Of a stretch of DNA of 64,000 bases, positions 3,579 to 42,820 are shown piece by piece. The stretch is from a virus, in the IMG/VR virus record IMGVR_UViG_3300033402_000312. One strand, written 5' to 3'. Each line of letters starts with the position of its first letter. Within the stretch, counting starts at the first letter, position 1. The translations under genes were made by a program, and so were the position numbers. The notes below the pieces were generated by a model. That model was not told the DNA's origin. It saw only the letters and a list, made by a program, of their open reading frames with translations, and did not search any database.

Positions 3579-3666
3579 GGGGTAGATGGCACAATGGCGT
3601 GCCAGCAGACTGTAAATCTGCCGTCCCTTGCGGACACGGTAGGTCCGATCCCTACCTACCCCACCA
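3579..3666 (+). tRNA. tRNA-Tyr(GTA), class II
   Basis: Acceptor GGGGTAG/CTACCCC+A+CCA; anticodon arm GCAGA-CTGTAAA-TCTGC; long variable arm; T arm GTAGG-TCCGATC-CCTAC. Confidence 0.75.
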
Positions 3667-3684
3667 AGCTTTGGAGCATCAAAC

Positions 3685-3912
3685 ATGCAAGTGGTTCAGA
3701 CGCACCTGGTGAGGAAGACGGAGCACGGAGAAGTCCACACGATATGCTGGCTCGACGTAAAGCCGAACGTGAAGGTTGGCTCCGTGGTGTCCTTGGAAGA
3801 CTCGCCCGGCGAGTGGTGGACTGTGCTGTCCCAAGGCTTCGTGCAGGATTCCTCGCTGATCAACCGGAAATGGGGCCTAGACCTGCCGAAGTCGCAGCGC
3901 CTCGAAAGGTAA
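3685..3912 (+). CDS. hypothetical protein
   Basis: 75-aa ORF with balanced composition directly after tRNA-Tyr; preferred over ORF 3594..4169, which overlaps the tRNA. Confidence 0.4.
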   Translation: MQVVQTHLVRKTEHGEVHTICWLDVKPNVKVGSVVSLEDSPGEWWTVLSQGFVQDSSLINRKWGLDLPKSQRLER

Positions 3913-4170
3913 TCGAATCCGGCAGGGTCACGGAGTGCAGGCACTGCGGCACGAGGCACCCCACGTGGGCGAACGGCACGATTTGTTTCATGGCTTTCTT
4001 CTACATTTGGGAGCGCGACCTGCTCCACATGGCGAAGCAGGACGCAGGATGGAGGTCGGTGGCGCACAAGTTGGGGTTCATGGACGCTAAGATCGATGCG
4101 CCGTGGGCTTTCCCAGATGAAGGACGCTATATAGCGTACAGGCGGATAAAAGACGGTGAGTTTTTGTAAC

Positions 4171-4259
4171 GCGAGCGTGGCGGAATCGGCAGACGCGCAA
4201 CGTTGAGAACGTTGTGGGGTTTTTATCCCGTAGGAGTTCGAGTCTCCTCGTTCGCACCA
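4171..4259 (+). tRNA. tRNA-Leu(GAG), class II
   Basis: Acceptor GCGAGCG/CGTTCGC+A+CCA; D arm TGGCGGAATCGGCAGACGC; anticodon loop TTGAGAA; long variable arm; T loop GGAGTTCGAGTCTCC. Confidence 0.8.
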
Positions 4260-4335
4260 GATTTAAGTTGGGGCGGTGTTTGGCACGGATGCTTTATACA
4301 AGAGTAAACCCCGTGCCGTTGATGTCCCCCACTTT

Positions 4336-4422
4336 GCGCGGGTGGTGGAATTGGCAGACACGCGGGCCTCAGAAGCCCGTGGGGTAAAACCCGTGGAGGT
4401 TCAAATCCTCTTCCGCGCACCA
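4336..4422 (+). tRNA. tRNA-Leu(CAG), class II
   Basis: GCGCGGG...CCGCGC+A+CCA; anticodon arm CGGGC-CTCAGAA-GCCCG; variable arm hairpin; T loop GAGGTTCAAATCCTC. Confidence 0.8.
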
Positions 4423-4457
4423 AGATTCGGGCGGCTTCTGGGTCGCTCCCAGAAGTA

Positions 4458-4548
4458 GGAGATGTGGCGGAATTGGCAGACGCAGCGCCCTTGAACGGCT
4501 CTGAGTCTATTAAGACGGCTCGTGCGGGTTCGACTCCCGCCGTCTCCG
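4458..4548 (+). tRNA. tRNA-Ser(TGA), class II, Leu-type D arm, G73, no encoded CCA
   Basis: Acceptor GGAGATG/CGTCTCC+G; D arm identical to Leu genes (TGGCGGAATTGGCAGACGC); anticodon loop CTTGAAC with one C-T mismatch in the stem; long variable arm; T arm GCGGG-TTCGACT-CCCGC. Confidence 0.6.
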
Positions 4549-4571
4549 TCGCCCGGACGTATTAAGGTGAC

Positions 4572-4940
4572 ATGGCCAAGTTCGAAGATCATTGCCGCGA
4601 CTGCGAGCGCATCCTTGGGGGCAGGCGCGAGGATGTGAACCGCTGGATGGACGAGCTTTTTCGCCAGCATGGCCCAAGGCACCGCAAGTTTCGGCATTGC
4701 TGGCACGGCGTGTGCGAGGCAAGGAAGATTTTCGGAGCGGAGGGCGCGAAAGCGGCAATCATCCACATCGTTCGGGATTGCGGCGCTGTGCCCGACCAGC
4801 GCGTCTACGACGAAACGCAGCTTGGCATCGTGCTCGCGCCGGAGCATGCGACAGGCAGCGCGGACAACGCGGCGTTCGAAAAGTTTAGGATTGCCGTGGA
4901 AGAGGACTTTAAGAAAGCGGTTACGAAGGGGTGTTTGTAA
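4572..4940 (+). CDS. hypothetical protein
   Basis: 122-aa ORF between tRNA genes; protein-like composition; RBS-like AAGGTG upstream. Confidence 0.55.
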   Translation: MAKFEDHCRDCERILGGRREDVNRWMDELFRQHGPRHRKFRHCWHGVCEARKIFGAEGAKAAIIHIVRDCGAVPDQRVYDETQLGIVLAPEHATGSADNAAFEKFRIAVEEDFKKAVTKGCL

Positions 4941-5060
4941 GTGATCTGGAGAAAGATCAACGAATTTTGTTTTCGTCGTTATGGGACGCACCAGCAAGAC
5001 TGCTGGCCCATATACGCCCGGATAGTTTATGCGGTACTGACCTATCTGGTGTAGCAAAAT

Positions 5061-5147
5061 GCGGCTATGGCGGAACTGGCAGACGCACTAGCTTGAGGTG
5101 CTAGCGGTAGCGATACCGTGGAGGTTCGAGTCCTCTTAGCCGCACCA
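5061..5147 (+). tRNA. tRNA-Leu(GAG) second copy, class II
   Basis: GCGGCTA...TAGCCGC+A+CCA; anticodon arm CTAGC-TTGAGGT-GCTAG; T loop GAGGTTCGAGTCCTC. Confidence 0.75.
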
Positions 5148-5155
5148 AATTTGGG

Positions 5156-5228
5156 GGAATAGCATTGTGGAATGCGCCCCGGTTCCAAACCGGGGAGAAG
5201 GCGGTCCGACTCCGCTTCTATTTCGGCA
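5156..5228 (+). tRNA. tRNA-Trp(CCA)-like candidate, possibly degenerate
   Basis: Clean anticodon stem-loop CCCGG-TTCCAAA-CCGGG resembling E. coli tRNA-Trp; T arm GGCGG-TCCGACT-CCGCT; acceptor pairing imperfect. Confidence 0.3.
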
Positions 5229-5430
5229 GTTGCGTTGTTCCCGAGCTTGGCGTCCAAAAGCTGTCATGGAAAGACAGCCTGCCCGGCTTCGCGGTGAGCA
5301 GAGGGCGATACTTCCCCCACAAGTGAGGAAGCTCCGGCATGTTGCTGGTTCGACTCCAGCGCTGTAGCGAAGGGCAAGCCGTGTAGACGGCGCGATTCGC
5401 GGTCGAGACATGCCGACTTCCGCTAGATTT

Positions 5431-5515
5431 GCGACCGTGGCGGAACTGGCAGACGCGCATGGCTTAGAACCATGTGGAGCAGTCCGTGGGGGTTCGACTC
5501 CCTCCGGTCGCACCA
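5431..5515 (+). tRNA. tRNA-Leu(TAG), class II
   Basis: GCGACCG...CGGTCGC+A+CCA; anticodon arm CATGG-CTTAGAA-CCATG; T loop GGGGGTTCGACTCCCTC. Confidence 0.8.
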
Positions 5516-5520
5516 AGATT

Positions 5521-5606
5521 GCCGGGCTGGCGGAATTGGCAGACGCACTCGCCTCAAAAGCGAGCGGTTAACAGCCATGAGGGTTCGACTCCCTCGCCCG
5601 GTACCA
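5521..5606 (+). tRNA. tRNA-Leu(CAA), class II
   Basis: GCCGGGC...GCCCGGT+A+CCA; anticodon arm CTCGC-CTCAAAA-GCGAG; T loop GAGGGTTCGACTCCCTC. Confidence 0.8.
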
Positions 5607-6713: not shown

Positions 6714-6920
6714 ATGTCCAAATCTCCGAAGGCTAAACAACCTGAGTACAATCATTGGGACGAATTTGTGAAGTTCGTCAAGGCGCAAGCCATCCTGTCC
6801 AAAGAATTCCGGGAACAACTCATCCTCAAAATGGGCGGGGGGATGCAAGACGCCCATGAGCGCGGTATCCTAGAGGGAAAGCGTCGGGCTAAATTGGAAC
6901 TCGAAAGAAAAACCAAATGA
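6714..6920 (+). CDS. hypothetical small protein
   Basis: Internal ATG 6714 of ORF 6678..6920; stop overlaps next start (ATGA). Confidence 0.35.
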   Translation: MSKSPKAKQPEYNHWDEFVKFVKAQAILSKEFREQLILKMGGGMQDAHERGILEGKRRAKLELERKTK

Positions 6921-7264
6921 GAATCTTGATCGCTGATGACGAAAACAGTTTGCGCGAATTGCTTGCAGATTTTTTGATCGCTAAGGGTCATGAGGTCGTC
7001 TCCGCGAAAGACGGAGCGGAGGCACTCCGCATTTTCCTCAACGACGAGGGCGAATTCGACTATGTCATAACCGACTATCAGATGCCGCGCAAGAACGGCG
7101 TCGTGCTCATCATGGACATCCGCAAAGCAGTTCCGGGCCAGAAGTGCATCCTCGTCACCGGCGATCCGCCGCAACTCTCTAAGGCCGTCCGCGAGGACGC
7201 GGGCGAATTTCCCGTCTTGCGTAAGCCTTACGACCGCACGGAACTCTTAGGACTGCTCAAATAA
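6917..7264 (+). CDS. stand-alone response-regulator receiver (CheY-like REC) domain protein
   Basis: REC hallmarks: ADDE acidic pair, phospho-acceptor Asp in VITDYQMP, Thr in ILVTG, Lys in LRKPY; no output domain. Confidence 0.8.
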   Translation: MRILIADDENSLRELLADFLIAKGHEVVSAKDGAEALRIFLNDEGEFDYVITDYQMPRKNGVVLIMDIRKAVPGQKCILVTGDPPQLSKAVREDAGEFPVLRKPYDRTELLGLLK

Positions 7265-7324
7265 CCCTCTTCAGTTCCCTAGCTAAACGGCCGTAATTCC
7301 AAAATCCACCCCCTCGGGGTATTA

Positions 7325-8347
7325 TTGGGATATATGGCGAAACCCTATGGGAACCCTGTCGCGTGTGACGAGGCAGAGACTCCGAAGAGACAAACTGTTT
7401 CGGTTGGTGACGATCAAGACCAAGCGTACTACCATTGGTCAAAGCGCAACGGCCTCTACCGCCCCGTGGGGCACACGCAGGACGCCATCCCGGCTGGCAT
7501 CTACGAGATCGACAACGACAACTCCGGCTGGTTCCTGTCCAAGGTGAAGTTCCCGTCCGACACCCTGCTCCGGCTGCCGGGCATGCCCATCGACTACATC
7601 CTCAGCCAGATCGACACCTTCTGGATGCGGGAGGAGCTTTTCAAGCAGACCGGGCTTCTGCACAAGCGCGGCATCCTGATGTACGGCCCGGCGGGATGCG
7701 GCAAAACTTCGATCATCAGGCTTCTGTGCGACGACGTCGTCAACAAGCGCGACGGCATCGTCATCATGGTGACAAACTGCCGCCTCGCCGAGACCGCCCT
7801 CGGCGGAGTCCGCCAGATCGAGTCCCGCCGCCCGATCCTGACCATCATCGAGGACATCGAGACGTTCATGGGGTCGAGCGACGAGTCGTCCTCAGCCCGT
7901 GCGCTCCTGGCTCTCCTCGACGGCGAGACCCAGATCGACCACGTCGTCCACCTCGCGACGACCAACAAGCCCGACGTGCTGGAAGACCGCATCTCCAAGC
8001 GCCCCGGACGGTTCGACCTTGTCATCGGCCTGAACCACCCGGTCGCAGACGCCCGCAAGGCGTACCTTGTCAACCTCCTGCAAGACCATGTGCCCGCAGA
8101 GGAGCTAGAAGTCATGGTCAGCGAGACGGAAGGTCTCGGGCTTGCCCACCTGCGCGAGCTAGTCGCGGCGTCGTACTGCCTCGGCCTCGACCGCAAGGAA
8201 ACCCTCGCCCGCTTGAAGACGAACTTCAAGAAGAAGCTCAAATCCATCGAAGGCAGGGGCAACGTCATGGGCTTCACGGTCAACTTTCCAGAAGAGGCGG
8301 AAGACGGAAGGTTGAAGCTCGATGACAGCGGTGATTCCCATGCCTGA
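7325..8347 (+). CDS. classical AAA ATPase (N-domain + AAA module)
   Basis: Walker A GILMYGPAGCGKTS; Walker B ILTIIEDIE; second region of homology ATTNKPDVLEDRISKRPGRFD (R-x-G-R-F-D). Confidence 0.85.
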   Translation: MGYMAKPYGNPVACDEAETPKRQTVSVGDDQDQAYYHWSKRNGLYRPVGHTQDAIPAGIYEIDNDNSGWFLSKVKFPSDTLLRLPGMPIDYILSQIDTFWMREELFKQTGLLHKRGILMYGPAGCGKTSIIRLLCDDVVNKRDGIVIMVTNCRLAETALGGVRQIESRRPILTIIEDIETFMGSSDESSSARALLALLDGETQIDHVVHLATTNKPDVLEDRISKRPGRFDLVIGLNHPVADARKAYLVNLLQDHVPAEELEVMVSETEGLGLAHLRELVAASYCLGLDRKETLARLKTNFKKKLKSIEGRGNVMGFTVNFPEEAEDGRLKLDDSGDSHA

Positions 8348-9395
8348 TACAAGTGAGTTCACACTGCTCTATGAGCGCTTGGATTCGGCAGACTCAGACC
8401 AAGGCCTATCGTATCCGAAAAATCCGCCTCGCGCACAGTCTGACGAAAAGGTCGCATCCGTGGATGGCACCCAGCTTCTTTCGTCCATGACGAAAAACCA
8501 GTGGGCGGTGCTGCCCGACGACACGTTCACTGCCATCGGCGCTACGGTCTCGCACCTGCCCCCGGCGATCTACACGCTTTCCTCGGACGGCGGCGGCGTG
8601 GTCTACTACAATAAGACGAAAGTCCTCACGGACAAGCTCATCGAACTGGACGACAGCGCTGCCATACGGGTCATCGCGGGGATCGAGACGTTCTGGGAGT
8701 CCAAGGCAAAGTTCGACCGCTTTGGCATCCTGTTCAAGCGCGGCATCCTCTTGTGGGGCCCTGCGGGATCGGGCAAGACAGCCACGGTCAACATGCTGAT
8801 GAACGACCTCGTGGGGCGCGGCGGCATGGTCGTCATCGTGCAAAAACCTTCAGTCGCCATCAAGGGACTCCATGATCTTCGCCGCATCGAGCCAGACCGC
8901 CCCATCATCATCGTTTTGGAAGACATCGAGGAGATGATCGACAACCACGGCGAGCACGGATTGTTGGGCCTGCTTGACGGGGAGCACCAAGTCTCCAACG
9001 TGGTCGTGCTGGCGACGACCAACTTCCCGGAACGCCTCGGCGAGCGCATCATCAACCGCCCCAGCCGCTTTGACGAGATCATCCTCGTGGACATGCCGTC
9101 CGCCAAAGCCCGCTACCGCTACCTGAAGCACGTGCTGAAGGACACCGTGCCGGAGGAGGAGCTTCAGCAGTGGGTCGAGGCGACGGACAAGCTGTCCATC
9201 GCGCACTTGCGCGAATTGATCGTCGCCACGCAATGCCTCGGCCGCCCGTATGCCGAGGTCGTGGACAGGCTGAAGCGGATGAGGATCAAGCCAAACAGCG
9301 ACAAGCTCCGCAAGGCGGAGCCGGGCTTTGACAGCCCGAACGCAGCGGAAGCGGGGAACGCGATTCGCGCAGCGCAGCAAGCAGCGGGGGGATAG
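8322..9395 (+). CDS. classical AAA ATPase, paralog of previous
   Basis: Walker A GILLWGPAGSGKTA; Walker B IIIVLEDIEE; SRH ATTNFPERLGERIINRPSRFD; 26-nt overlap with upstream AAA gene. Confidence 0.85.
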   Translation: MTAVIPMPDTSEFTLLYERLDSADSDQGLSYPKNPPRAQSDEKVASVDGTQLLSSMTKNQWAVLPDDTFTAIGATVSHLPPAIYTLSSDGGGVVYYNKTKVLTDKLIELDDSAAIRVIAGIETFWESKAKFDRFGILFKRGILLWGPAGSGKTATVNMLMNDLVGRGGMVVIVQKPSVAIKGLHDLRRIEPDRPIIIVLEDIEEMIDNHGEHGLLGLLDGEHQVSNVVVLATTNFPERLGERIINRPSRFDEIILVDMPSAKARYRYLKHVLKDTVPEEELQQWVEATDKLSIAHLRELIVATQCLGRPYAEVVDRLKRMRIKPNSDKLRKAEPGFDSPNAAEAGNAIRAAQQAAGG

Positions 9396-9401
9396 AGTCA
9401 A

Positions 9402-9746
9402 ATGGGACTCGATTTTGTCGGCTCAGACGCAAACTGGTCTTACACTGGCTTCAATCGGTTTCGGACGATGCTTGCAAAGGAAGTCGGCATCGACTTGGAC
9501 AGCATGGAAGGGTTCGGCGGTAGCGTTAAGTGGTCTACGCTGCCGAAAGACCCGATCCATTTCCTTCTCAACCACTCGGATTGCGACGGCCACATAACGG
9601 CGAAGCGGTGCGCAAAGATAGCGCCGCGACTGTTGGAGCTTGTGGCAAAGTGGCCCGACGATATTTATGACAAGACCCAAGCGCTACTTCTAGCCGAAGG
9701 GATGAAGGCATGCGCCCAAAAGGGGAAACCCTTGGAGTTTTGCTAG
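9402..9746 (+). CDS. hypothetical protein
   Basis: 114-aa ORF. Confidence 0.45.
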   Translation: MGLDFVGSDANWSYTGFNRFRTMLAKEVGIDLDSMEGFGGSVKWSTLPKDPIHFLLNHSDCDGHITAKRCAKIAPRLLELVAKWPDDIYDKTQALLLAEGMKACAQKGKPLEFC

Positions 9747-9747
9747 C

Positions 9748-10278
9748 ATGGAACGGATCGACCATTTCGCTTACGAGCATGACTTTTTGTCGAACTTCTA
9801 TCCTGTGGCGATTGTCATGGAGGGCGCTGAGTATGGTTCTGTCGAGCACGCATACCAAGCCGCCAAGGTCCTCAATCCTGAGAAGCGCCGCATCCTCACG
9901 CTGGACTTCAACCCGAACCTGACAGCCGGGCAAGCCAAGAAGGTGGGGCGAAACCTTGACTTGCGCGACGATTGGGACGAAGTCAAGGCTCTGATCATGC
10001 GCGAACTCCTGTTCCAAAAGTTTGGGAATCCCGCCTTAAGAGCTAGGCTGCTAGCCACAGGCACCGCCGAACTGGTTGAAGGAAATTATTGGGAAGACCG
10101 CCATTGGGGCGTGTGCTACGGCGGATTGCCGACTGGATTTGATGGACGCAAGTGTAAAAAATGGCCGCACGATCCAGCGGGCGACAACAAGCTGGGACAA
10201 TTGCTGATGGAAATCCGCTTTGAACTTCTTTCTCAGAAGGAATCATGGGGAAGCTCAAACTGGACAAAAACACCTTAG
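9748..10278 (+). CDS. NADAR domain protein (YbiA-like ADP-ribose N-glycosidase family)
   Basis: Motifs FLSNFYP, SVEHAYQAAK, DW..VK..M..LL.KF, LLATG.AELVEG...D..WG, N.LGQLLMEIR align to YbiA/DUF1768. Confidence 0.8.
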   Translation: MERIDHFAYEHDFLSNFYPVAIVMEGAEYGSVEHAYQAAKVLNPEKRRILTLDFNPNLTAGQAKKVGRNLDLRDDWDEVKALIMRELLFQKFGNPALRARLLATGTAELVEGNYWEDRHWGVCYGGLPTGFDGRKCKKWPHDPAGDNKLGQLLMEIRFELLSQKESWGSSNWTKTP

Positions 10279-10517
10279 TTGCTGCGTGCAAAGCCGTTTG
10301 CGTTTTTTGTAAAGAGGGCGTTCCGTACAACGCCGAAAAAGAGCAACATGCAAACCTTTACCATTGTAAGGCTTGGACGATTCGATCTCTGTTTTTGAAA
10401 GCCGAGTCCAGACGCGAGTTCAAGCGCCGCGAAATTGGGGATGAAGCCGTTGACTACCAAGCCGAGCAAGCGGTCGAAAAAACTGGCGATAGCGTTGAGC
10501 GAGCTTTGCACGTATGA
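10245..10517 (+). CDS. hypothetical Cys-containing small protein
   Basis: 90-aa ORF overlapping NADAR 3' end. Confidence 0.35.
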   Translation: MGKLKLDKNTLVAACKAVCVFCKEGVPYNAEKEQHANLYHCKAWTIRSLFLKAESRREFKRREIGDEAVDYQAEQAVEKTGDSVERALHV

Positions 10518-10665
10518 TGAGATGGCCGCTTACGTTCTCGCTTTGCTTGCGGCAGAGCGGGAGCGGGCTTTCAAAGACATCTACGAGTTCGCACTGAGCC
10601 GCCACGGCAAGGGCGGCTATGTCCATTACAGTGAGCTAGAAGCCCTCAAGGAGCCAAGATCATGA
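10435..10665 (+). CDS. hypothetical protein (start uncertain)
   Basis: 76-aa ORF; real start may be internal ATG ~10528 (MAAYVLALL...). Confidence 0.3.
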   Translation: MGMKPLTTKPSKRSKKLAIALSELCTYDEMAAYVLALLAAERERAFKDIYEFALSRHGKGGYVHYSELEALKEPRS

Positions 10666-11102
10666 AAGATATTTGGGTCTGTAAAATCGGCGAAACGGAA
10701 AGAGACAATCTTCCAGATGGGGCTGATTTTCCCATGAGGTTGGTTGTTGCCGAGGCTTATCGACAAATTACGGGACACGATCCAGATTTTTTCTGGTTGG
10801 GGCGGGGAATTGACCGAAGCCGAGCGAATTGTAGCAAACGAGAAGCGGGGAAAGCCATGAGCGACGTCGGCATGACGGAGTTCGAGAGGTTCGCCATGGA
10901 TCACAACGAGCATGCGCACTGCGCTGGGTGCGGGGGCTGCATGCTCGACCCGCGCATCAAGGAATTGCAGGCAGCCCCCGTTTGGTGTATGGGCTGCGTC
11001 AAGGCCATCCATGCCAAGATGCCTGTCGGTGCCCCGCGCCCGTGGGCAGGCGGGGTGATGTTCTGCAACCCCGGAAATTTCTTCTTGAAAATAACCTCTT
11101 GA
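10662..11102 (+). CDS. hypothetical protein
   Basis: 146-aa ORF, ATGA overlap with upstream ORF; Cys/His cluster HCAGCGGCM. Confidence 0.5.
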   Translation: MKDIWVCKIGETERDNLPDGADFPMRLVVAEAYRQITGHDPDFFWLGRGIDRSRANCSKREAGKAMSDVGMTEFERFAMDHNEHAHCAGCGGCMLDPRIKELQAAPVWCMGCVKAIHAKMPVGAPRPWAGGVMFCNPGNFFLKITS

Positions 11103-11359: not shown

Positions 11360-11447
11360 CGGAGCGTAGGCGGGTAAATGGAAGCCCTCCTGCTTTGGAA
11401 GCAGGTGCCTGCGGGCCTTGGGAGTTCGAGTCTCCTCGCTCCGACCA
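11360..11447 (+). tRNA. class II-type tRNA with UGG anticodon and tRNA-Pro acceptor identity (C1:G72, A73)
   Basis: CGGAGCG...CGCTCCG+A+CCA; anticodon arm CCTGC-TTTGGAA-GCAGG; variable-arm hairpin GCC-TGCG-GGC; T arm GGAG-TTCGAGT-CTCC; 88 nt. Confidence 0.55.
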
Positions 11448-11472
11448 AGTTTCATTCGCGAATAGCGAATGT

Positions 11473-11551
11473 CAGGGCGTAGCTCAGTCTGGTTTAGAGT
11501 ACTCGCGTCGGAAGCGAGGGGTCGTGAGTTCGAATCTCACCGCCCTGACCA
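11473..11551 (+). tRNA. tRNA-Pro(CGG)-like (A37)
   Basis: CAGGGCG...CGCCCTG+A+CCA (C1:G72, A73); D arm GCTC-AGTCTGGTTTA-GAGT; anticodon arm CTCGC-GTCGGAA-GCGAG; T arm GTGAG-TTCGAAT-CTCAC. Confidence 0.65.
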
Positions 11552-11563
11552 GTATTATGATAA

Positions 11564-11902
11564 ATGATTGAATCAGAACGAGTTTTTCGTCGTGCCCGGC
11601 AACGAAAGTGGTATCGTGAACGTGGACGTGCCAAACAGATTAAGAAGGCAACCGCCCGAAAGAAGCGGATCATTGCTTGGTATCGAGCGTACAAAAGTAC
11701 GTTGAAATGCTCTCGGTGCTCGGAGAGGCGTTCAGCCGCCTTGGATCACCATCACCGGGACCCAAAAATGAAGGAGTTTAACATTGCCTTTGCTGTAGGG
11801 AATGGTTACTCCATTAAACGGTTGCTAAAAGAAATCGCGAAATGCGATGTCTTGTGCGCTAATTGCCACAGAGTTGAAGAGGCTGAAAGGCGCAAAGTTT
11901 AG
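11564..11902 (+). CDS. HNH homing endonuclease (inside tRNA array)
   Basis: HNH core LDHHHRDPKMKEFN...CDVLCANCHR; basic N-terminus; inserted between two tRNA-Pro genes. Confidence 0.75.
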   Translation: MIESERVFRRARQRKWYRERGRAKQIKKATARKKRIIAWYRAYKSTLKCSRCSERRSAALDHHHRDPKMKEFNIAFAVGNGYSIKRLLKEIAKCDVLCANCHRVEEAERRKV

Positions 11903-11907
11903 GTTTT

Positions 11908-11984
11908 CGGGTTGTAGCGCAGCCTGGTAGCGCGTACGCTTGGGGTGCGTAAGGTCGCGGGTCCGAATCCCGCCAACCCGACCA
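11908..11984 (+). tRNA. tRNA-Pro(GGG)
   Basis: CGGGTTG TAGCGCAGCCTGGTAGCGC...CAACCCG+A+CCA; anticodon arm TACGC-TTGGGGT-GCGTA; matches E. coli proL architecture. Confidence 0.8.
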
Positions 11985-12112
11985 AGTTCAGGCTGAAGTA
12001 GGTACATCGGTAACTACAGGCAGCCGAGAGACAGTCCGAGTCCCGCTGAGCGTCCCGCCGAGCCTACGCGCACCAATCGGTCAAGCGTACAGGGACGAGC
12101 AGCAGCGAGTTT

Positions 12113-12184
12113 TGCGGGGAAGTGAATAGGATCACGAGAGCCTCATAAGCTCTAAATCCGGTTCGAGTCCGGCGTCCGCAACCA
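12113..12184 (+). tRNA. tRNA-Met(CAT)-like, short D loop, imperfect T stem
   Basis: TGCGGGG...GTCCGCA+A+CCA; D arm GTGA-ATAGGA-TCAC; anticodon arm AGAGC-CTCATAA-GCTCT; T region CCGG-TTCGAGT-CCGG; 72 nt. Confidence 0.45.
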
Positions 12185-12333
12185 ATTTGAGGGCTAAATA
12201 TCGGTTGCCCGAGTGCGGAACATGGTTTCGAAAGTGTAAAAAGCAGATGCGCTTAGCCATGGCGGCTCCTAGTGCGTAAAGGGCGGACACGCCCGAGGCA
12301 AAACTGCCTCGCATACCGAAGAGCCACAATTTT

Positions 12334-12936
12334 ATGGAACAGTACCCAGAGATACCCGGCGCGAAGAAGGCTCCCCTCGGGGAGAGGTGCATCGCGTTCT
12401 ACAAGTACGACGGCTCCAACCTCCGGTGGGAATGGAGCAAGAAGCGCGGCTGGCACAAGTTCGGCACGCGGACGGAGCTTTTCGCCCCGGAGCACCCGCT
12501 GTGGGGGCAGGCACTCCCCCTTTGGCGCGGGATCGCGCACGACGTCAAGGATCGCATTTACGCGAGCGACTGGCGGTTCCGCAACATACAGCGGATCACG
12601 GCGTTCACCGAGTTCTTCGGGCCTTCGAGCTTCGCCGGGACGCATGACGAGAAGGAGCCGAAGGAGCTTAGGCTCATCGACGTCTGGCTGTACAAGCACG
12701 GCAGGATGCCGCCCCGGTGGTTCGTGGACACGTTCAGCGACGCGTCGTACGCGGCGCAGGTGGTCTACGAGGGCAACCTGAGCACGGAGTTCATCCGCGA
12801 CGTGCGGGCGGGGAAGTACCCGGTGTGGGAAGGCGTCGTGGCGAAGGGCGACGACTGGATGGCGAAGATCAAGACCGAGGCGTACATGCTGAAGCTCAAG
12901 GAGGTCTTCGGCCTGGACTGGGAAGGGTTCGCGTAA
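12334..12936 (+). CDS. minimal ATP-dependent RNA/DNA ligase-like nucleotidyltransferase (Rnl2-type NTase domain only)
   Basis: Motif I KYDGSN (K24), motif III FTEFFG, motif IV WEGVVAKGD, motif V AKIKTEAY; ~200 aa, no C-terminal domain. Confidence 0.65.
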   Translation: MEQYPEIPGAKKAPLGERCIAFYKYDGSNLRWEWSKKRGWHKFGTRTELFAPEHPLWGQALPLWRGIAHDVKDRIYASDWRFRNIQRITAFTEFFGPSSFAGTHDEKEPKELRLIDVWLYKHGRMPPRWFVDTFSDASYAAQVVYEGNLSTEFIRDVRAGKYPVWEGVVAKGDDWMAKIKTEAYMLKLKEVFGLDWEGFA

Positions 12937-12940
12937 TAAA

Positions 12941-13017
12941 CGGGGCGTAGCGCAGCCTGGTAGCGCGTCTGCTTCGGGAGCAGAAGGCCGTTGGTTCGAA
13001 TCCAATCGCCCCGACCA
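12941..13017 (+). tRNA. tRNA-Pro(CGG)
   Basis: CGGGGCG TAGCGCAGCCTGGTAGCGC...CGCCCCG+A+CCA; anticodon arm TCTGC-TTCGGGA-GCAGA, identical loop to E. coli proK. Confidence 0.85.
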
Positions 13018-13041
13018 ATATTATGCATAGCGAGGTGCATT

Positions 13042-13702
13042 ATGATTCTGGAAATAAGAGCGGCGGAAGGCGGCGAGGACGCGAGGCTCCTCGTCGAGGA
13101 CCAGACGACGATCTACGCCCGCGTGGCGTCGCGGAGGGGTCTTTGAGTTCGAGGTCGTGGAGCAGCGCCAGGGCTTCGCGGTCCTGAGGATCACGGGGCC
13201 GGGCGCGAAGGAGGCGTTCGCGAATGAGTCGGGAGGTCATCGCTGGCAGAGGGTCCCGCCGACTGAGAAGCGCGGCAGGGTGCAGACCTCGACGGTCACC
13301 GTCGCGGTGTTCGACGAACCCGAGGCTTCGGAGTTCAAGGTCAGAGACGCCGACCTCGCATGGGAGACCATGCGGAGCGGGGGCAAGGGCGGGCAGAACG
13401 TGAACAAGGTCGAGACTGCCGTCCGGCTGACCCACAGGCCGACCGGGCTGACAGTGCGGTGCGAGTCCGAGCGGTCGCAGTCGCGCAACAGGCAGACAGC
13501 GCTCGCCACCCTGACCGCCCGGCTGGCTGCGGCGCGGCGGGAGCAGCAGCAGGACGCGCAGGCGACCGACCGGAGGCGGCAGATCGGCACGGGGCAGCGC
13601 GGGGACAAGCGCCGGACGATCCGCGAAAGGGACGGGGTCGTGACAGACCACGTCCTGAACCGGAAATGGCGATACGCGGACTATGTGCGCGGGCTGTGGT
13701 AA
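13042..13702 (+). CDS. N-terminally truncated class I peptide-chain release factor homolog (domains 2-4) with programmed +1 frameshift at 13141-13146
   Basis: Frame 1: ATG 13042 (RBS GAGGTG), [34 protein letters not shown] then CTT TGA; frame 2 continues [13 protein letters not shown]...[28 protein letters not shown]...[38 protein letters not shown] (PxT-like PPT and GGQ motifs, RF1-like); GGAGG 3 nt upstream of CUU UGA as in prfB. Confidence 0.7.
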
Positions 13703-13712
13703 GATAGCTTAT

Positions 13713-13788
13713 GGCGGTGTAGCTCAGTTGGAGAGCGCGGGTCTCATAAACCCGAGGTCGCTGGTTCGTTCCCCAGCCACCGCTACCA
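13713..13788 (+). tRNA. tRNA with CAT anticodon (Met elongator or Ile2/lysidine type)
   Basis: GGCGGTG TAGCTCAGTTGGAGAGC...CACCGCT+A+CCA; anticodon arm CGGGT-CTCATAA-ACCCG; T arm GGTCGCTGGTTCGTTCCCCAGC resembles ileX. Confidence 0.75.
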
Positions 13789-13804
13789 AATTTGGGGAAG
13801 AAAT

Positions 13805-13966
13805 ATGTCTCATCCTGTAGTTTTTGATTGTCCACACTGTGGTCGGAGTTTAGAAGCATCATCAGAAACAGTAGTTCGCTGTCCACATTGTAGGGTAGCC
13901 ATCGATATTCTGACAGACGGAGTGAAGATAGACCCATTTGCAGAAAAATTTCATATTGGCGAGTGA
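13805..13966 (+). CDS. small zinc-ribbon protein (53 aa)
   Basis: ATG 13805; two CPHC pairs (FDCPHCGRS...VRCPHCRVA); start of an AT-rich island containing the next HNH gene. Confidence 0.4.
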   Translation: MSHPVVFDCPHCGRSLEASSETVVRCPHCRVAIDILTDGVKIDPFAEKFHIGE

Positions 13967-13999
13967 GGTCTAGTACTACAGTCAGTGTGACTAAGTTAC

Positions 14000-14548
14000 T
14001 TGACTTTCAAGAAGCATAAGTGGAGAATACCACTTATGCGACAAACAGTTTCAGTCACATGCAATTTTTGTGGCAATCAACTAGATAAACTTGCGAAGTC
14101 CGTAAAATGGGCGAGAGCTAACGGGCAAAAAAATTTTTACTGTAACATGGTCTGTATGCAGTCTGGCCGAACCTTAGGTCGGGTAAAACCGGGTACGGCT
14201 TTGCGTAGTCTTTTATGTCGGTATAAACAGACTGCAAGACGGAGAAAAGTTTCGTTTACGTTAACGGACACTGAATTTGGGAGCTTGGTTACCCAGTCAT
14301 GCTACTATTGCGGCGATGCTCCAGCACAAGTAGCAAGAGCCAAATCTGGCGAGACCTTAAAGTATAACGGGATAGACCGGGTTAATAACTTGTTCGGGTA
14401 TTCTACTGACAACAGCGTGAGTTGTTGCGGTACATGCAATCGTTGGAAATCATCCATGTCATCGGAGGATTTCTTGGCTCAAATCAGGAAAATTTTTGAG
14501 AGGACAACTATGGTCACCAACCTTAGCAAGACCGCCCATACGGCGTAA
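14000..14548 (+). CDS. HNH homing endonuclease
   Basis: CYYCGDAP...YNGIDRVNNLFGYSTDNSVSCCGTCNRWKS HNH core; N-terminal CxxC; low-GC island. Confidence 0.8.
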   Translation: MTFKKHKWRIPLMRQTVSVTCNFCGNQLDKLAKSVKWARANGQKNFYCNMVCMQSGRTLGRVKPGTALRSLLCRYKQTARRRKVSFTLTDTEFGSLVTQSCYYCGDAPAQVARAKSGETLKYNGIDRVNNLFGYSTDNSVSCCGTCNRWKSSMSSEDFLAQIRKIFERTTMVTNLSKTAHTA

Positions 14549-14577
14549 CGTGTGGGCCGGTCACAAGGAGAACCAAA

Positions 14578-15240
14578 ATGTTGTCAAGGACTAAAAAGGC
14601 GGCTGCGCTGTACTTCGAGCCGCTCAAGAAACTGCTGGCTGCTGTGCGGTCGGTGGTGCAGTTCCGTGTGAAGCGCTGGCATGTCGCCATGCGCGGGTGG
14701 AATGAGAAAGACGTTCGCGTCCTGATCTGCCTTGAAGACTCGATCTGGTACTGGGTCGTGTTGGAGTGGCTGTTCTGGGACGTCCAGACGCATGTCTGCC
14801 ACTGCATGGACTGCGTCAAGCTCCCGAAGTTCGTCCGCAACTGGAAGCGGCACTGGGACAAGGACGATCCCGAGTACTTCGCCACGTGGGAGGACTGGTA
14901 CGGCGACAGCTTTCACTCGATCTGGCACTGCCATGTGTGCGATCCCTTGCTTCAGTGGGTGTGGAGGCACAAGGATTTCCACAAGGCGTGGCCGCAGTGG
15001 GAACTGACGTTCGACGAAGCCCGCAAGACCTTCGCGCACGACCCGAAAATCTACGAGTGGGCTGAGAAGGAACTTGCGGAGCACAAGCAGTACGACGCCG
15101 AGAAGCTCGACGAGATTCGCAAGTCCTACAAGGCTGGCGGCCTGACCCGCGAGCAGGCGCTTGAAAAGCTGGGGTGGCACTTCGGGGGCGAGAATCTTGA
15201 AATTCTGCTTGACGAAAAAGAAGGACTAACAGTATCTTAA
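14578..15240 (+). CDS. hypothetical Trp/His/Cys-rich protein
   Basis: RBS AAGGAG 8 nt upstream; 220-aa ORF. Confidence 0.6.
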   Translation: MLSRTKKAAALYFEPLKKLLAAVRSVVQFRVKRWHVAMRGWNEKDVRVLICLEDSIWYWVVLEWLFWDVQTHVCHCMDCVKLPKFVRNWKRHWDKDDPEYFATWEDWYGDSFHSIWHCHVCDPLLQWVWRHKDFHKAWPQWELTFDEARKTFAHDPKIYEWAEKELAEHKQYDAEKLDEIRKSYKAGGLTREQALEKLGWHFGGENLEILLDEKEGLTVS

Positions 15241-15485
15241 TAGATGCACGTGGGACCCCGACCGACCTGACGAGGCAGCTTGTACGAGAGGTGGCGGGCA
15301 GTGCGCATCAACCTGGCACCGAGGCTCATAACGACTGAACAGCCGGAGCCGATGACAACGGGGTCCCACAACTTTTTCAGTCCCAGCCCTGCCTGACTGG
15401 GTGGTTGCGGGGGAGATGTTCCAGCCCATACGATGACTGGATGGCGGGGACGCAATGTTTGGCGGAGACGACTAAATTTTTCTGA

Positions 15486-15562
15486 TGCGGGGTGGAGCAG
15501 TCTGGTAGCTCGCAACGCTCATAACGTTGAGGTCGCCGGTTCAAATCCGGCCCCCGCTTCCA
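15486..15562 (+). tRNA. initiator-like tRNA-Met(CAT)
   Basis: Body nearly identical to E. coli tRNA-fMet (TGGAGCAGTCTGGTAGCTC, GGTCGCCGGTTCAAATCCGGCCCCCGC); unpaired 1:72 (T/T); CCA encoded; anticodon stem CAACG/CGTTG lacks the three G:C pairs. Confidence 0.75.
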
Positions 15563-15578
15563 GTTTATAGCCCGAGGG

Positions 15579-15818
15579 GTGGAACCTGAGACGGCAATTC
15601 CGCCCCTCCATTCTTTGAAAGGGCGCATGGGACAGACTTCGTCAAGCTCCAAAACGACAGCCACCGAACTGGCGAAGATGCTGATGGAGCACCCCGACTG
15701 GGAAGTCGAGGTCGAGGGTTACGCTTGGTTCGGGATGAACGAGCCTACGAAGTATACGTCGTCGCCCGAAGTGGACGAACTGCCCGAGCAGAAAAAGTTT
15801 CTCATCTACACAGTCTGA
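15579..15818 (+). CDS. hypothetical small protein (start may be 15627)
   Basis: 79-aa ORF directly after tRNA; acidic C-terminal half. Confidence 0.35.
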   Translation: MEPETAIPPLHSLKGRMGQTSSSSKTTATELAKMLMEHPDWEVEVEGYAWFGMNEPTKYTSSPEVDELPEQKKFLIYTV

Positions 15819-16090
15819 GTTCAACGCCCGTAGGCTTTGAGCCGAGATGCAGAAGGGCTGGCAGAGCCATACGACCTGATGCAGGACGGGAAAGCTCTGC
15901 AAGTAATTTGTGAAGAGATTCTGCAAATGAGGCGGCATCTCATTTGCAGGGGAGCCGGAGCAAATGCGCGAGGACATGCCTCACCAGCGCGTTCAGACGG
16001 ACACCGGACCGGGTGAAAGCCGTGGCAAGACTGTTTGAGTCTCCGGCGCAAGCTTCGCAGCGGTGTAATGTACGGATACTTCACATAAAC

Positions 16091-16119
16091 CAGTAGGTTG
16101 TGGGTTCGAATCCCACCTT
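16091..16119 (+). tRNA. tRNA 3' fragment (variable loop + T arm + acceptor 3' strand)
   Basis: GGTTGTGGGTTCGAATCCCACCTTCCGAG has perfect T arm GTGGG-TTCGAAT-CCCAC but no matching 5' half upstream. Confidence 0.4.
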
Positions 16120-16669
16120 CCGAGAAATCGGATGTAGCTCAACTGGAAGAGCAACAGGTCAGAAAAATTCCGTGCAGCTTTTTGTTCCCTGCGATTTCAA
16201 GACTGATTTTTTCGTGCCGAGCCGCCCGTGCGTGGCCACGCTAAGGCGCGGGAGAATCCATAAGGTGGCTGTTGTACAGGCCCGCTCGTACGAAGGGCGA
16301 TCTTTCTAGCTAGAGGTTCGTACGAGCGAATACATTTCGGTGCTTCAAGCCGTTCTCGGACGTAAACCGAGTGGAGCGGAACCTCGCACGTTTCCCGGTT
16401 CGTCAAAAACCGGGTGGATTTCTATGACGAAAGCGACCGCGTGCAGCCTCGTTGCTTATGCCTCGGCGTTCGCTGCTGGCGCGACTTTCTGGTACGGAAC
16501 CTTGGCGTCGAAGCCCAAGTTCTATTATCTCGCGGTAGCGTTCTTCTTGTTTGCCGCGAAGTTCCGTTTTCTGGCTTCCGCGCATCTAAAAGGAAAGATT
16601 CAATGAAGCTGACGTCCCAACTCGACTCGTTTAGCGGCCCCTCCGGGGGCCTGCGGTAACGTGTGTCAA

Positions 16670-16745
16670 GGGGACGTAGCTGATGCGGTCTTAGCGCCTG
16701 CCTGAAGAGCAGGAGATGTTGGTTCGACTCCGACCGTCCCCGCCA
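16670..16745 (+). tRNA. tRNA-Phe(GAA)
   Basis: GGGGACG...CGTCCCC+G+CCA; anticodon arm CCTGC-CTGAAGA-GCAGG; T arm GTTGG-TTCGACT-CCGAC. Confidence 0.8.
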
Positions 16746-37305: not shown

Positions 37306-37996
37306 TGGGATTGTTTACCGAATTACGAACATTCGCAACGGTAAAGTGTACGTCGGTAAGACGAACGGGACGATTGCCCGTCGCTGGACAAGACATGTTG
37401 CAGAGGCGAAGAGAGGAACGAACACGCGTCTCTATAACGCCATGCGCAAATACGGTGTGCAGGCGTTCGAAATCAGCCCTATCGAAACGGTCTTGTTTAG
37501 CGGATTGTCTGACGCGGAGCGTGAATGGATTCAAAAACTTAAGTCCCGTGATCCAAAGCTTGGTTACAACATTACGCCGGGCGGGGACGGTGCCGGAGTC
37601 GGACCTGACAACCCGAATTACGGCAAACCTGGACCCAACCGTGGGCGAAAATTTCCACCGGAATTTGGGCAGAAGATTAGCCAAGCAAAGAAGGGCACCA
37701 AGGTCTCTGAACAAGCGCGGCAGAACATCATCAGGGGATTGACAGGGCGAATACCAACGGAGGCAACACGTCAGAAATTAGCCCAAGGAAAACGGGGCGC
37801 TCTCAATCCAAGCTGGAAAAAGCCTCATTCTGCGGCGTGGAAGAGGCAAAACAGCGAAAGATTTAGGGACAGAGTTTGGATTAGCTTGGGCACATCGGAG
37901 ACCAAACGAGTGAAGTCTTCGGAGTTGCAAGAATACTTTGAAAAAGGTTGGATACAAGGGCGATGGAATCGAAGAGCACGCATGCAGTCGAGATAG
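37292..37996 (+). CDS. GIY-YIG homing endonuclease with NUMOD-like repeats
   Basis: GIVYRITNIRNGKVYVGKT (GIY...YVG), R and E catalytic positions; repeated GKPGPNRGRKFPPE / KKGTKVSEQARQN motifs; low-GC island. Confidence 0.8.
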   Translation: MPKTDGIVYRITNIRNGKVYVGKTNGTIARRWTRHVAEAKRGTNTRLYNAMRKYGVQAFEISPIETVLFSGLSDAEREWIQKLKSRDPKLGYNITPGGDGAGVGPDNPNYGKPGPNRGRKFPPEFGQKISQAKKGTKVSEQARQNIIRGLTGRIPTEATRQKLAQGKRGALNPSWKKPHSAAWKRQNSERFRDRVWISLGTSETKRVKSSELQEYFEKGWIQGRWNRRARMQSR

Positions 37997-39180
37997 TTCC
38001 CGTGGTGTTGGAGCGGCACCCCAACGCAGACAGCCTCAGCGTTGTTCGTGTCTGGAACTTCACTGTGGTGGTGCGGACAGAAGATTGGATCGGTGTAGAG
38101 AAAGCGGCCTATGTGCCTCCTGACAATATTTTGCCCGACAAGCCCGAGTACCGCTTCCTGAAGAACACGTCCGTCCTCCGCAAGGAGCGCGAGGAATTGG
38201 AGACCAAGCAAGTCTTGGCTGGAGACCCGAGGTGCGGCAACCCGCATTGGGAGCTTCTCAGAGACTATGCCCCGGAAGAGTACGCCCAAAAGCTGGCCGC
38301 CATCGAAGCCAAGATCGACGCGAATACCAAGCACCTTCGCATCACCGTGAAGAAGCTGCGCGGCATCGTCTCGATGGGCATGCTGCTGCCAGCGCCGGAA
38401 GGCTCACAGATTGGCGACGACGTGGCGGGGCAGCTTGGCGTTACGCACTACGAGCCGCCGTCCATGGAAGAGATCGGGGGCCGCAGGCAGCACGCCGGGG
38501 ACGACGTCGCCCCCGCCCCGCCGATGATCTACGCTCCCGCGTACGACGTGGAGTCCATCTACAAGTATGCGGACTGCTTCGAGGCGGGCGAGCCTGTGTA
38601 CGTGTCCGAGAAGATTCACGGCCAAAACGGGCGTTTCGTGGCGACCGACAACGGCAACGAGACGGTCGAGGAGCACCCCGAAACCGGATACTGGAAATGG
38701 TCTACTCCCGTGACTCTGCACGCTGGCTCCCGCACTGAGTGGAAAAAGAAGGAGGGAGGCTCCAACTGGTGGAAGGTGCAGGAGCAAAACCCGTGGATCG
38801 AGAAGTGGTGCTACGACAACCAGGACTGCGTCCTCTACGGCGAGGTCTTCGGCTGGGTGCAGGCGCTCAAGTACGGCGCGAAGCCGGGGCAACTTTTCTT
38901 CCGCGCCTTCGACGTCGTGGAGGGCACGGAGTTCTGGGACGCCGAGAGGTTCCTCGCCGAGATTCCTAAGGACTGGCGTGTGCCGTGCCTCGGGGTCATG
39001 CCATTCGACTTCGAGGGATTGCAGGCTTTGGCGGACGGGACGTCCTTGGTGCCGGGTGCCGCCAACCAGATGCGAGAGGGGATCGTGATCAAGCCGCTCA
39101 AGGAGCGCAAACACTGGAAGCTGGGGCGCGTTGTCTTAAAATTGGTCTCGAATGAGTACCTAGAAAAGTCAAATCGATGA
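37948..39180 (+). CDS. ATP-dependent RNA ligase (Rnl2/RnlB-like) with N-terminal extension
   Basis: Motif I KIHGQNGRF, motif III LYGEVFG, motif IV REGIVIKP, motif V WKLGRVVLKLV. Confidence 0.8.
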   Translation: MDTRAMESKSTHAVEIVPVVLERHPNADSLSVVRVWNFTVVVRTEDWIGVEKAAYVPPDNILPDKPEYRFLKNTSVLRKEREELETKQVLAGDPRCGNPHWELLRDYAPEEYAQKLAAIEAKIDANTKHLRITVKKLRGIVSMGMLLPAPEGSQIGDDVAGQLGVTHYEPPSMEEIGGRRQHAGDDVAPAPPMIYAPAYDVESIYKYADCFEAGEPVYVSEKIHGQNGRFVATDNGNETVEEHPETGYWKWSTPVTLHAGSRTEWKKKEGGSNWWKVQEQNPWIEKWCYDNQDCVLYGEVFGWVQALKYGAKPGQLFFRAFDVVEGTEFWDAERFLAEIPKDWRVPCLGVMPFDFEGLQALADGTSLVPGAANQMREGIVIKPLKERKHWKLGRVVLKLVSNEYLEKSNR

Positions 39181-42220: not shown

Positions 42221-42385
42221 GAAAAACCAGGTAGTCAACGGTCCGGCGGGTCTCGGTATTGTTCAAAAGAGATTAAAGGGCCCTTCCGACGATGACACCC
42301 GTTATTTCGTGGGTCTTGGCATGTGCGGGATATGGGCGCACTGGAGCAAGATTCGACCTCTCACGAAGAAACAGATTGGATAACT

Positions 42386-42820
42386 ATGCCGCAGCTTGAG
42401 GTAGCGACAATCGTGATGAAGGATGCGGTCAACGTCCTGATCGGGAAGCAGAAGGACGGCCCGGACGCCGGGAAATGGGTGATTCCCAGCGGCCTCATCC
42501 GGGAGGGCGAGCGCATGATCGAAACGTGCGAGCGCGTGTCCATCGAGGAGACGGGAATCGTGGTGAAGCCCAAGCAAGTCCTTTTCCTGTCCGAGGTGCT
42601 CAAGCCGGAGCACCGCACGGCGGTGTTCTGCTTTGCCGACTACGTGAGCGGCGAGCCTTCGCCCGGCGCGTCCCTGACCGAGGTCAAGTTCGTAGACCCG
42701 AGAACCCTCGGCGACTACCAGAAGGAAGGCATGGCGGAGCTTACGGAGGATGCCTTCTTCAAGTTCAGCATGGTCCTCAGAGGGCAAGCGGCGGCGTCCC
42801 CAACATCCGGCATAGTTTAA
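42386..42820 (+). CDS. Nudix hydrolase
   Basis: Nudix box GKWVIPSGLIREGERMIETCERVSIEETGI (G-x5-E-x7-REUxEExGU). Confidence 0.75.
   Translation: MPQLEVATIVMKDAVNVLIGKQKDGPDAGKWVIPSGLIREGERMIETCERVSIEETGIVVKPKQVLFLSEVLKPEHRTAVFCFADYVSGEPSPGASLTEVKFVDPRTLGDYQKEGMAELTEDAFFKFSMVLRGQAAASPTSGIV

Follow-up and report, generated by a model that had tools for sequence, protein, structure and literature searches.

What does a stand-alone NADAR-domain gene do in the genome of a huge phage? We addressed this question for one gene in the IMG/VR virus record IMGVR_UViG_3300033402_000312, analysed here as a stretch of 64,000 nucleotides (the window). The original prediction had placed a NADAR (YbiA-like) protein at 9748–10278 and read it as a likely counter to guanine ADP-ribosylating toxins of the DarT type. 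The domain call is correct. An open reading frame (ORF) of 176 amino acids plus stop runs exactly from an ATG at 9748 to the end of its stop codon at 10278 on the + strand, its product matches Pfam NADAR (PF08719) with 82.3 bits against a gathering cutoff of 35.1 (E = 6e-23; profile positions 9–162 of 163) and PHROG 1017 with E = 5e-38, and its modelled fold is that of YbiA and of the NADAR structure 8BAU. A presumptive Shine-Dalgarno-like motif, GGAG (9734–9737, + strand), lies 10 nt 5′ of the ATG within the end of the upstream gene, whose TAG stop codon (9744–9746) is separated from the NADAR ATG by one base. The start position is common to close homologues, which open with MERIDHFAYE, MDRIDHFAYE or MIRIDHFAYE, and the identical protein occurs on six contigs with places from three separate datasets (ENA, JGI and Logan). 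The ORF is real and encodes a NADAR-domain protein, with a match far beyond chance; from the ORF, the Pfam match, the AlphaFold2 (AF2) model and the Foldseek search, we predict a stand-alone ADP-ribosyl N-glycohydrolase.

The window is phage DNA and forms part of a huge phage. It encodes a portal (PHROG 16240, E = 2e-24) and a family-A DNA polymerase (PolA) with 53% and 42% identity, respectively, to those of Tunturiibacter phage Tunturi_5, as well as a virion structural protein, together with a 5′–3′ exonuclease, a clamp loader, an RNA ligase (37948–39180, about 28 kb downstream of the NADAR gene), GIY-YIG and HNH endonucleases, a NUDIX protein (42323–42820) and many ORFans. There are 16 tRNA genes in the window, 13 of them confirmed by Rfam, and the NADAR gene sits between two tRNA arrays. 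When the first 25 kb were compared by megablast with 50,697 phage records, no nucleotide match emerged, so the phage has no close sequenced relative in that set. Its size class follows from its relatives, two of which share the local gene order on contigs of 447,784 and 453,890 bp, and from the presence of the query protein on an 894,233-bp contig. Tunturi_5 is a 309-kb jumbo phage with an Acidobacteriota host; at the locus compared, the syntenic position upstream of PolA, it carries no NADAR. The phage of the window is best explained as lytic in type, and there is a weak hint that its host belongs to the Acidobacteriota.

An AF2 model built on 113 homologues reached a mean pLDDT of 95.3 and a pTM of 0.88. 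When it was searched against the PDB with Foldseek, only two matches were significant: Escherichia coli YbiA (2B3W; E = 9.5e-9, TM 0.70) and the NADAR of Phytophthora nicotianae (8BAU; E = 3.7e-7, TM 0.66, 26% identity over the alignment). The ADP-ribose contacts in 8BAU are E43, K50, R79, W89, R93, E125, D130 and W133 (Schuller et al. 2023, PMC11543638). HMMER alignments with 8BAU and 2B3W, run both with the query and with its family profile, place E33, K40, R68, W76, K80, E111, D117 and W120 of the query at these positions. The codons from E33 to K40, in the motif VEHAYQAAK with the catalytic Glu and Lys, lie at 9844–9867 (+ strand), and the second active-site segment, E111-G-N-Y-W-E116-D117-R-H-W120, is encoded at 10078–10107 (+ strand). 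In the DarT1-associated NADAR of E. coli C7, the catalytic residues are E88, K95 and D171, the last being structurally equivalent to E125 of the Phytophthora protein (PMC11543638). Thus E33 and K40 of the query correspond to E88 and K95 in C7 and to E43 and K50 in Phytophthora, its E111 to Phytophthora E125, and its D117 and W120 to D130 and W133.

Conservation within the family follows the same pattern. E33, K40, W76, E111 and D117 are invariant across the 113 homologues, as are N113 and W115, and W120 is more than 90% conserved. The check proposed with the original prediction, conservation of the YbiA catalytic residues, therefore came out in its favour, with all ADP-ribose-binding and catalytic residues kept. 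Because these known residues are all in place, the sequence carries no sign of an inactive enzyme, and the protein is best explained as catalytically competent, as far as its residues can tell.

The NADAR superfamily has been divided into stand-alone ‘NADAR’, YbiA-type, T4-type phage NADAR (AdfN) and DarG1 proteins (PMC12945103). The closest functionally characterized counterpart of the query that we identified is NADAR-Bas32 (bas32_0066) of Escherichia phage IrisVonRoten, a T5-like phage of the BASEL collection, with 42% identity over the whole domain (103 bits, E = 1e-33). NADAR-Bas32 neutralizes DarT1 and restores plating of DarTG1-sensitive phages (Johannesman, Carlson & LeRoux 2024, PMC11257639). 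Like the query, it is a stand-alone phage NADAR without an N-terminal extension, belongs to PHROG 1017, has the catalytic residues including the Glu at position 111, and has no adjacent toxin gene. The two differ in that Bas32 has a short loop (WGVCRGIGDN) and Gly at position 116, whereas the query has a 21-aa Cys/His insertion and Glu116; their phage lineages and probable host phyla are unlike, and activity has been demonstrated for Bas32 but is predicted for the query.

Identity to E. coli YbiA is lower, at 34%, although YbiA ranks first by structure and by profile (TM 0.70, as above, and 111 bits with the family profile) and, like the query, has the signature Glu at 111 and an unextended core fold. 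YbiA lacks both C123 and the Cys/His loop of the query. In a rough neighbour-joining tree of 233 sequences, built without support values, the smallest clade that contains the query and Bas32 excludes YbiA. The label ‘YbiA-like’ in the original prediction holds in its broad sense, but the protein is closer to stand-alone NADARs of the Bas32 type than to E. coli YbiA itself. According to de Souza and Aravind, the YbiA family is reportedly defined by a conserved Glu, the equivalent of Phytophthora nicotianae (Pn) E125; the query has this Glu as E111, and it is invariant in its clade. On the E. coli chromosome, ybiA belongs to the dinG operon, which LexA controls (PMC11125620).

Two other assignments were tried and rejected. 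The query is not an AdfN in the strict sense: it scores 29.6 bits on PF08010, below the cutoff of 36, over residues 13–64 only, and it matches PHROG 652, the group of T4 gp30.3 (AdfN), only weakly (E = 6e-5), its own group being another one. The alignment of the query with AdfN is confined to the N-terminal 66 residues of the query (33 bits), and AdfN-type proteins have a His where the query has Glu111 (PMC11543638, PMC11257639). Like the query, AdfN is an orphan in a phage genome, and it counters DarTG1, the role proposed for the query, by taking ADP-ribose off phage DNA (PMC11257639). Neither is the query of DarG1 type. DarG1 proteins (E. coli C7, Geobacter lovleyi; PMC11543638) belong to the same superfamily, with the same proposed hydrolysis of guanine-N2-ADP-ribose, but have an N-terminal β1-β2-α1 extension and a catalytic Asp (D171 in C7) and are encoded beside DarT1. 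In the query, the FLSNFYP motif begins at residue 13, with only a short strand and a helix before the core in the AF2 model, the catalytic position is Glu111, and no DarT model matches in the window. The eukaryotic Phytophthora NADAR, onto which all ADP-ribose-contacting positions could be mapped, is a weaker match than YbiA (phmmer, 32 bits).

Beside the conserved core, the query carries a clade-specific feature at the edge of the active site. Alignments place C123 and a 21-aa insertion (residues 124–144), with C136 and H141, at 10114–10179 (+ strand), between WGVC123 and G145-x-N-x-LG; neither YbiA nor NADAR-Bas32 has the insertion, and AF2 models the block with pLDDT 88–91. We surveyed this loop in 138 representatives of clusters at 50% identity. 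Thirty of the 31 proteins with an extra loop Cys have His or Glu at position 116, which adjoins the ADP-ribose ligand D117, as against 7 of the 107 short-loop proteins (Fisher p = 1.5e-22 for the covariation of residue 116 with the loop Cys, a value not corrected for phylogeny). The loops come in several architectures (CxCxxC, CxCxxH, Cx2-3Cx4-5H and Cx12Cx4H), each of which supplies three ligands including C123, with residue 116 in addition. The candidate ligands are E116, C123, C136 and H141 in the query, and His116, Cys123 and two Cys/His residues in its relatives. On this pattern, the Cys/His loop and residue 116 probably form a small zinc-binding knuckle.

The same site has been extended elsewhere in the superfamily. 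The Phytophthora NADAR has an insertion of about 32 aa at this position, between the WG motif and GxNxLG, that is unrelated in sequence and not rich in Cys or His, and this insertion is part of an extension flanking the active site (PMC11543638). As a caveat to the covariation, that protein combines a His at the position equivalent to 116 with a loop that is not Cys-rich. In a literature search at the level of titles and abstracts, no paper concerned a metal site in NADAR, and we found no description of the loop sub-type.

The NADAR gene has diverged far more rapidly than its syntenic neighbours. Four related phage contigs keep the order receiver-domain protein, AAA+ protein (and a further AAA+ protein) and NADAR, followed at intervals by the RF1-like gene (13157–13702 in the window) and PolA. 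Among related huge phages, the NADAR is 57–63% identical, far below the conserved genes around it, which are 76–81% (the two AAA+ proteins), 67–82% (a 200-aa protein), 70–81% (RF1-like) and, in the two closest backbones, L015 and L175, 87–88% (PolA) identical. Those two backbones carry a NADAR with His116 and a 17-aa loop. The window's own type, with Glu116 and a 21-aa loop, is shared with L174, whose PolA is 61% identical, and with L014. The NADAR allele and loop type are therefore discordant with the backbone, which shows allele swapping and mosaic evolution. GC3 of the NADAR gene is 0.62, against 0.81–0.92 for the conserved neighbours. Small ORFs flanking the gene (9402–9746, which is the upstream 114-aa gene, 10435–10665 and 10662–11102) have no counterpart in the related phage contigs and are strain-specific. 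A gene of host–phage conflict is expected to diverge rapidly, exchange alleles and have a variable flank; a gene of metabolic housekeeping is not.

No dedicated partner of the gene was found. Among the PADLOC and Pfam matches listed for the 76 ORFs of the window (for Pfam, the best 25 of 39 families), there is no DarT, DarG or ART (ADP-ribosyltransferase) family. PADLOC matches the query only as PDC-M42C, a component of a candidate system, and this is uninformative, as YbiA and Bas32 match PDC-M42C too. We also clustered the neighbours of relatives encoded at 80 IMG/VR loci and 66 cellular loci. No recurrent partner gene emerged (a toxin, NAD salvage, Macro and Nudix were sought), the maximum being 9 of 81 viral and 6 of 66 cellular loci, and on these counts we reject a toxin–antitoxin or operon model. 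The commonest viral neighbours are an RNA ligase, a PNK-like kinase, PTH2 and a metallophosphatase (each at 7–9 of 81 viral loci), a MoxR/VWA pair and a radical-SAM enzyme. The upstream 114-aa gene was rejected as a partner, as it has no family annotation and is missing from the related phages. The NADAR gene is an orphan, and its family is one of free-standing, mobile genes.

These observations bear on the proposed function. The explanation that we favour, with a probability of roughly 58%, is that the phage NADAR removes guanine-linked ADP-ribose from phage DNA and would thereby counter DarT1-like or other guanine ART toxins. A guanine-specific DNA ART of the host (DarT1 of DarTG1, a pierisin/ScARP-like enzyme or another) would place ADP-ribose on the N2 amino group of guanine in phage DNA. 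The NADAR would then bind the ADP-ribose moiety, contacting the pyrophosphate through K40, R68, W76, K80, D117 and W120 and gripping the distal ribose with E33 and E111, and would hydrolyse the ribose–guanine bond to yield free ADP-ribose and a replicable template. Because the target would be the lesion and not the toxin, the enzyme would be effective whichever toxin had made the adduct. Support comes here from the observed domain, fold, active-site conservation, phage origin, orphan status, homology to Bas32 and fast mosaic evolution; from these we infer the substrate, guanine-ADP-ribose on DNA, and the biological role. The anti-defence reading of the original prediction thus gains by homology, in a phage genome, with no adjacent toxin and with 42% identity to a NADAR known to act against DarTG1.

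Published experiments provide the precedent. Anti-DarTG1 counter-defence has been demonstrated for T4 AdfN, NADAR-Bas32 and NADAR-Bas60 (PMC11257639), and guanine-ADP-ribose is removed in vitro by each of the four NADAR families tested (PMC11125620, PMC12945103). Johannesman et al. (2024) have already published the idea of an anti-DarT phage NADAR, of which the query would be a fairly divergent further example. Caution is warranted because NADARs vary in their in vivo specificity, which the fold does not predict. Both E. coli YbiA and the T4 NADAR show activity in vitro, yet neither relieves uninfected E. coli of DarT1 toxicity (PMC11125620). Two further points weigh against the anti-DarT reading. 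The validated Bas32 lacks the 21-aa Cys/His insertion, which could alter substrate preference, and the surroundings of tRNA, RF1-like and RNA-ligase genes fit an RNA-directed role equally well.

On such an RNA-directed reading, the NADAR would strip ADP-ribose from guanosine or cytidine of tRNA, rRNA or mRNA and protect phage translation from host ARTs that target RNA. The location between two tRNA arrays, near the RF1-like gene and some 28 kb upstream of the RNA ligase, suggests this, as do the RNA ligase, PNK-like kinase, PTH2 and metallophosphatase that recur as minor neighbours; NADAR/YbiA family members, moreover, remove cytidine-ADP-ribose and, in vitro, reverse guanosine and cytidine ADP-ribosylation on RNA (PMC11833690, PMC12945103). 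However, the recurrence of these neighbours is weak, reaching 11% of loci at most, and the cases are probably not independent, the gene order here is the general backbone synteny of the phage clade, no natural defence by an RNA guanine ART has been shown to be countered by a NADAR, and the validated phenotypes of phage NADARs concern DNA and DarTG1 (PMC11257639), so we regard an RNA substrate as unlikely. Iyer, Aravind and co-workers have proposed from contextual analysis that phage NADARs degrade N-glycosidic ADP-ribose derivatives, such as immune signals or by-products of NAD-dependent RNA repair, in place of macromolecular adducts, and have noted that NADAR co-occurs with Nudix, Macro and SLOG domains in large phages (PMC9503650). 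The window does contain a NUDIX gene, but it is 32 kb away and has no assigned specificity; all NADARs tested act on base-linked ADP-ribose in nucleic acids (PMC11125620, PMC12945103), and we found no experimental support in the literature examined for a small-molecule substrate, which appears distinctly improbable.

Automatic pipelines annotate the family as an N-glycosidase that destroys reactive intermediates of the riboflavin pathway, a form of metabolite damage control, and the query scores on TIGR02464 (‘riboflavin biosynthesis intermediates N-glycosidase’) exactly at its cutoff (73.7 bits for both). That score does not discriminate, as the validated anti-DarT Bas32 reaches 66.3 bits on the same model; because YbiA, Bas32 and the query are all accepted by TIGR02464 and PHROG 1017, neither can separate housekeeping from anti-DarT proteins. 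The 34% identity to YbiA, its rank as best PDB match and the YbiA-type Glu at 111 could still be taken to favour housekeeping, but E. coli YbiA itself removes ADP-ribose from G and C (PMC12945103). A phage genome with no riboflavin-pathway family among the Pfam matches listed for the window ORFs is a poor setting for this role, which also does not predict the rapid mosaic evolution of the gene, and we consider it very unlikely. Most improbable of all is that the NADAR reverses ADP-ribosylation by an ART of the phage's own, encoded elsewhere in a genome of about 450 kb or larger; such an ART could act on host nucleic acids, with those of the phage kept clean by the NADAR. T4-like phages express a NADAR and their own ARTs as early genes (PMC9503650), and the 64-kb window is only part of a much larger genome. 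Against self-immunity, no ART was found among the family matches listed for the 76 window ORFs, none is adjacent to the gene in related phages, and none recurs as a partner in the 80 viral loci.

If the anti-DarT reading is right, the gene would be another orphan, antitoxin-like phage enzyme that mends the lesion of a toxin without blocking the toxin. It would come from a huge soil phage with a probable Acidobacteriota host, far from the E. coli phages in which such counter-defence was originally demonstrated. GenBank labels phage homologues as ‘riboflavin biosynthesis protein’, ‘GTP cyclohydrolase II’ or ‘swarming motility protein’; ‘NADAR family ADP-ribosyl glycohydrolase, putative anti-DarT factor’ would be an apt annotation in their place.

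We also considered what the loop might do. A zinc knuckle at the edge of the active site could conceivably retune the enzyme away from plain guanine-ADP-ribose on ssDNA and towards another ADP-ribosylated base, a structured RNA such as tRNA, or the modified DNA of the phage, a proposal that we consider unlikely. Were it true, the swapping of 17-aa and 21-aa loops in near-identical backbones would represent adaptation to different host toxins. The covarying Cys/His loop offers a simple sequence marker for dividing the large NADAR family into sub-types. The query has 1610 database relatives at E ≤ 1e-5. The family is very common, with at least 579 matches in IMG/VR, at least 587 in species-representative genomes and 451 GenBank phage records. 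At E ≤ 1e-3, there are 12,838 cluster representatives (50% identity); with no more than 28 clusters at E ≤ 1e-30, the query belongs to a small subclade. Among the matches listed, the best cellular relatives are at most 48% identical, and the closest relatives, at 57–63%, are encoded on metagenomic contigs, several of them 330–510 kb in length.

The NADAR gene (9748-10278, plus strand, 176 aa) is much more divergent than the conserved genes around it. Across 6917-10278, compared with four related huge-phage loci of similar gene order (L014, L015, L174 and L175), NADAR proteins are 57-63% identical, whereas the products of flanking genes are 76-88% identical, and the type of NADAR loop or allele is discordant with the relatedness of the phage backbones. 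The GC3 of the NADAR gene, 0.62, also falls well under the 0.81-0.92 of its neighbours. Taken together, the excess divergence, the discordance between allele and backbone and the low GC3 suggest diversifying selection and/or allele exchange at this locus.

Comparison with homologues P0002-P0261 located a Cys/His-rich loop at NADAR residues 116-144 (10093-10179). The loop is variable in architecture, and it covaries with His or Glu at residue 116, which adjoins the ADP-ribose ligand D117 (30/31 versus 7/107 family representatives). Judging from these residue patterns, the loop is probably a zinc knuckle next to the active site; we found no description of this covarying loop in the searchable literature.

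Small ORFs flank the NADAR gene at 9402-9746, 10435-10665 and 10662-11102, and none of the three had a counterpart in the related phage contigs searched. The upstream ORF (9402-9746) encodes 114 aa assigned to PHROG 11026 (unknown function), and a single base separates its stop codon from the start codon of NADAR. These ORFs look like a variable accessory-gene slot. Further upstream lie genes for a receiver-only response regulator resembling CpdR and CheY (6917-7264) and for two paralogous classic AAA+ ATPases (7325-8347 and 8322-9395), which are PAN/Cdc48-like, share ~40% identity with each other and give weak matches to IetA and TRIP13. In related huge phages this receiver and tandem AAA+ block is kept directly before NADAR, and it could constitute a phage-encoded unfoldase with its adaptor.

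The window carries 16 tRNA genes in two arrays, at 3579-5606 and 11360-16745, comprising five Leu, four Pro, three Met and one each of Tyr, Ser, Trp and Phe; three of the 16 score under the Rfam gathering threshold, including an 88-nt tRNA-Pro(UGG) call at 11360-11447. HNH endonuclease genes (11564-11902 and 14000-14548) are interleaved with the tRNAs. Also within the second array is a 181-aa release-factor-1 fragment (13157-13702), 70-81% conserved in relatives, that matches only positions 158-319 of the prfA model; it comprises the last part of the PCRF domain, including a PPT tripeptide, plus the GGQ domain, and is devoid of the N-terminal domains. Just upstream, between tRNA genes, a 200-aa protein (12334-12936) is 67-82% conserved in relatives and is encoded at a very high GC3 (0.92); searches of Pfam, PHROGs, NCBIfam and PDB sequences gave no match to it. 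Its motif KYDGSN recalls the KxDG motif of nucleotidyl-transferases (ligases), a resemblance in sequence that we offer only as a lead.

Elsewhere in the window are a NUDIX hydrolase (42323-42820) and an RNA ligase (37948-39180; PHROG 968), and co-occurrence of NUDIX, NADAR and RNA-repair genes has been described in large phages (PMC9503650). The NUDIX enzyme could be an ADP-ribose pyrophosphatase that disposes of ADP-ribose released by NADAR.

The contig to which a database protein search assigned the NADAR protein measures 894,233 bp; those of two syntenic relatives measure 447,784 and 453,890 bp. Either the larger contig joins two copies of a ~447-kb genome head to tail as an assembly dimer, or it represents a phage genome exceeding 735,411 bp, the largest phage record among those matched. 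The closest isolated relative is Tunturi_5, a jumbo phage of Tunturiibacter (Acidobacteriota), with 42% identity in family-A DNA polymerase (PolA) and 53% in the portal protein; Acidobacteriota are the probable host phylum of this phage clade.

In the same phylum, one Bryobacterales chromosome (MAG OZ241991.1) encodes at least four dispersed paralogues of the stand-alone NADAR type described here (L105, L121, L123 and L172), each followed by small related ORFs, an unusual expansion. GenBank labels for T5-like and other phage homologues are inconsistent ('GTP cyclohydrolase II', 'riboflavin biosynthesis protein', 'swarming motility protein YbiA', 'DUF1768' and 'hypothetical'), and among the matches listed a single record, labelled 'antitoxin-like enzyme', reflects the published anti-DarT function.
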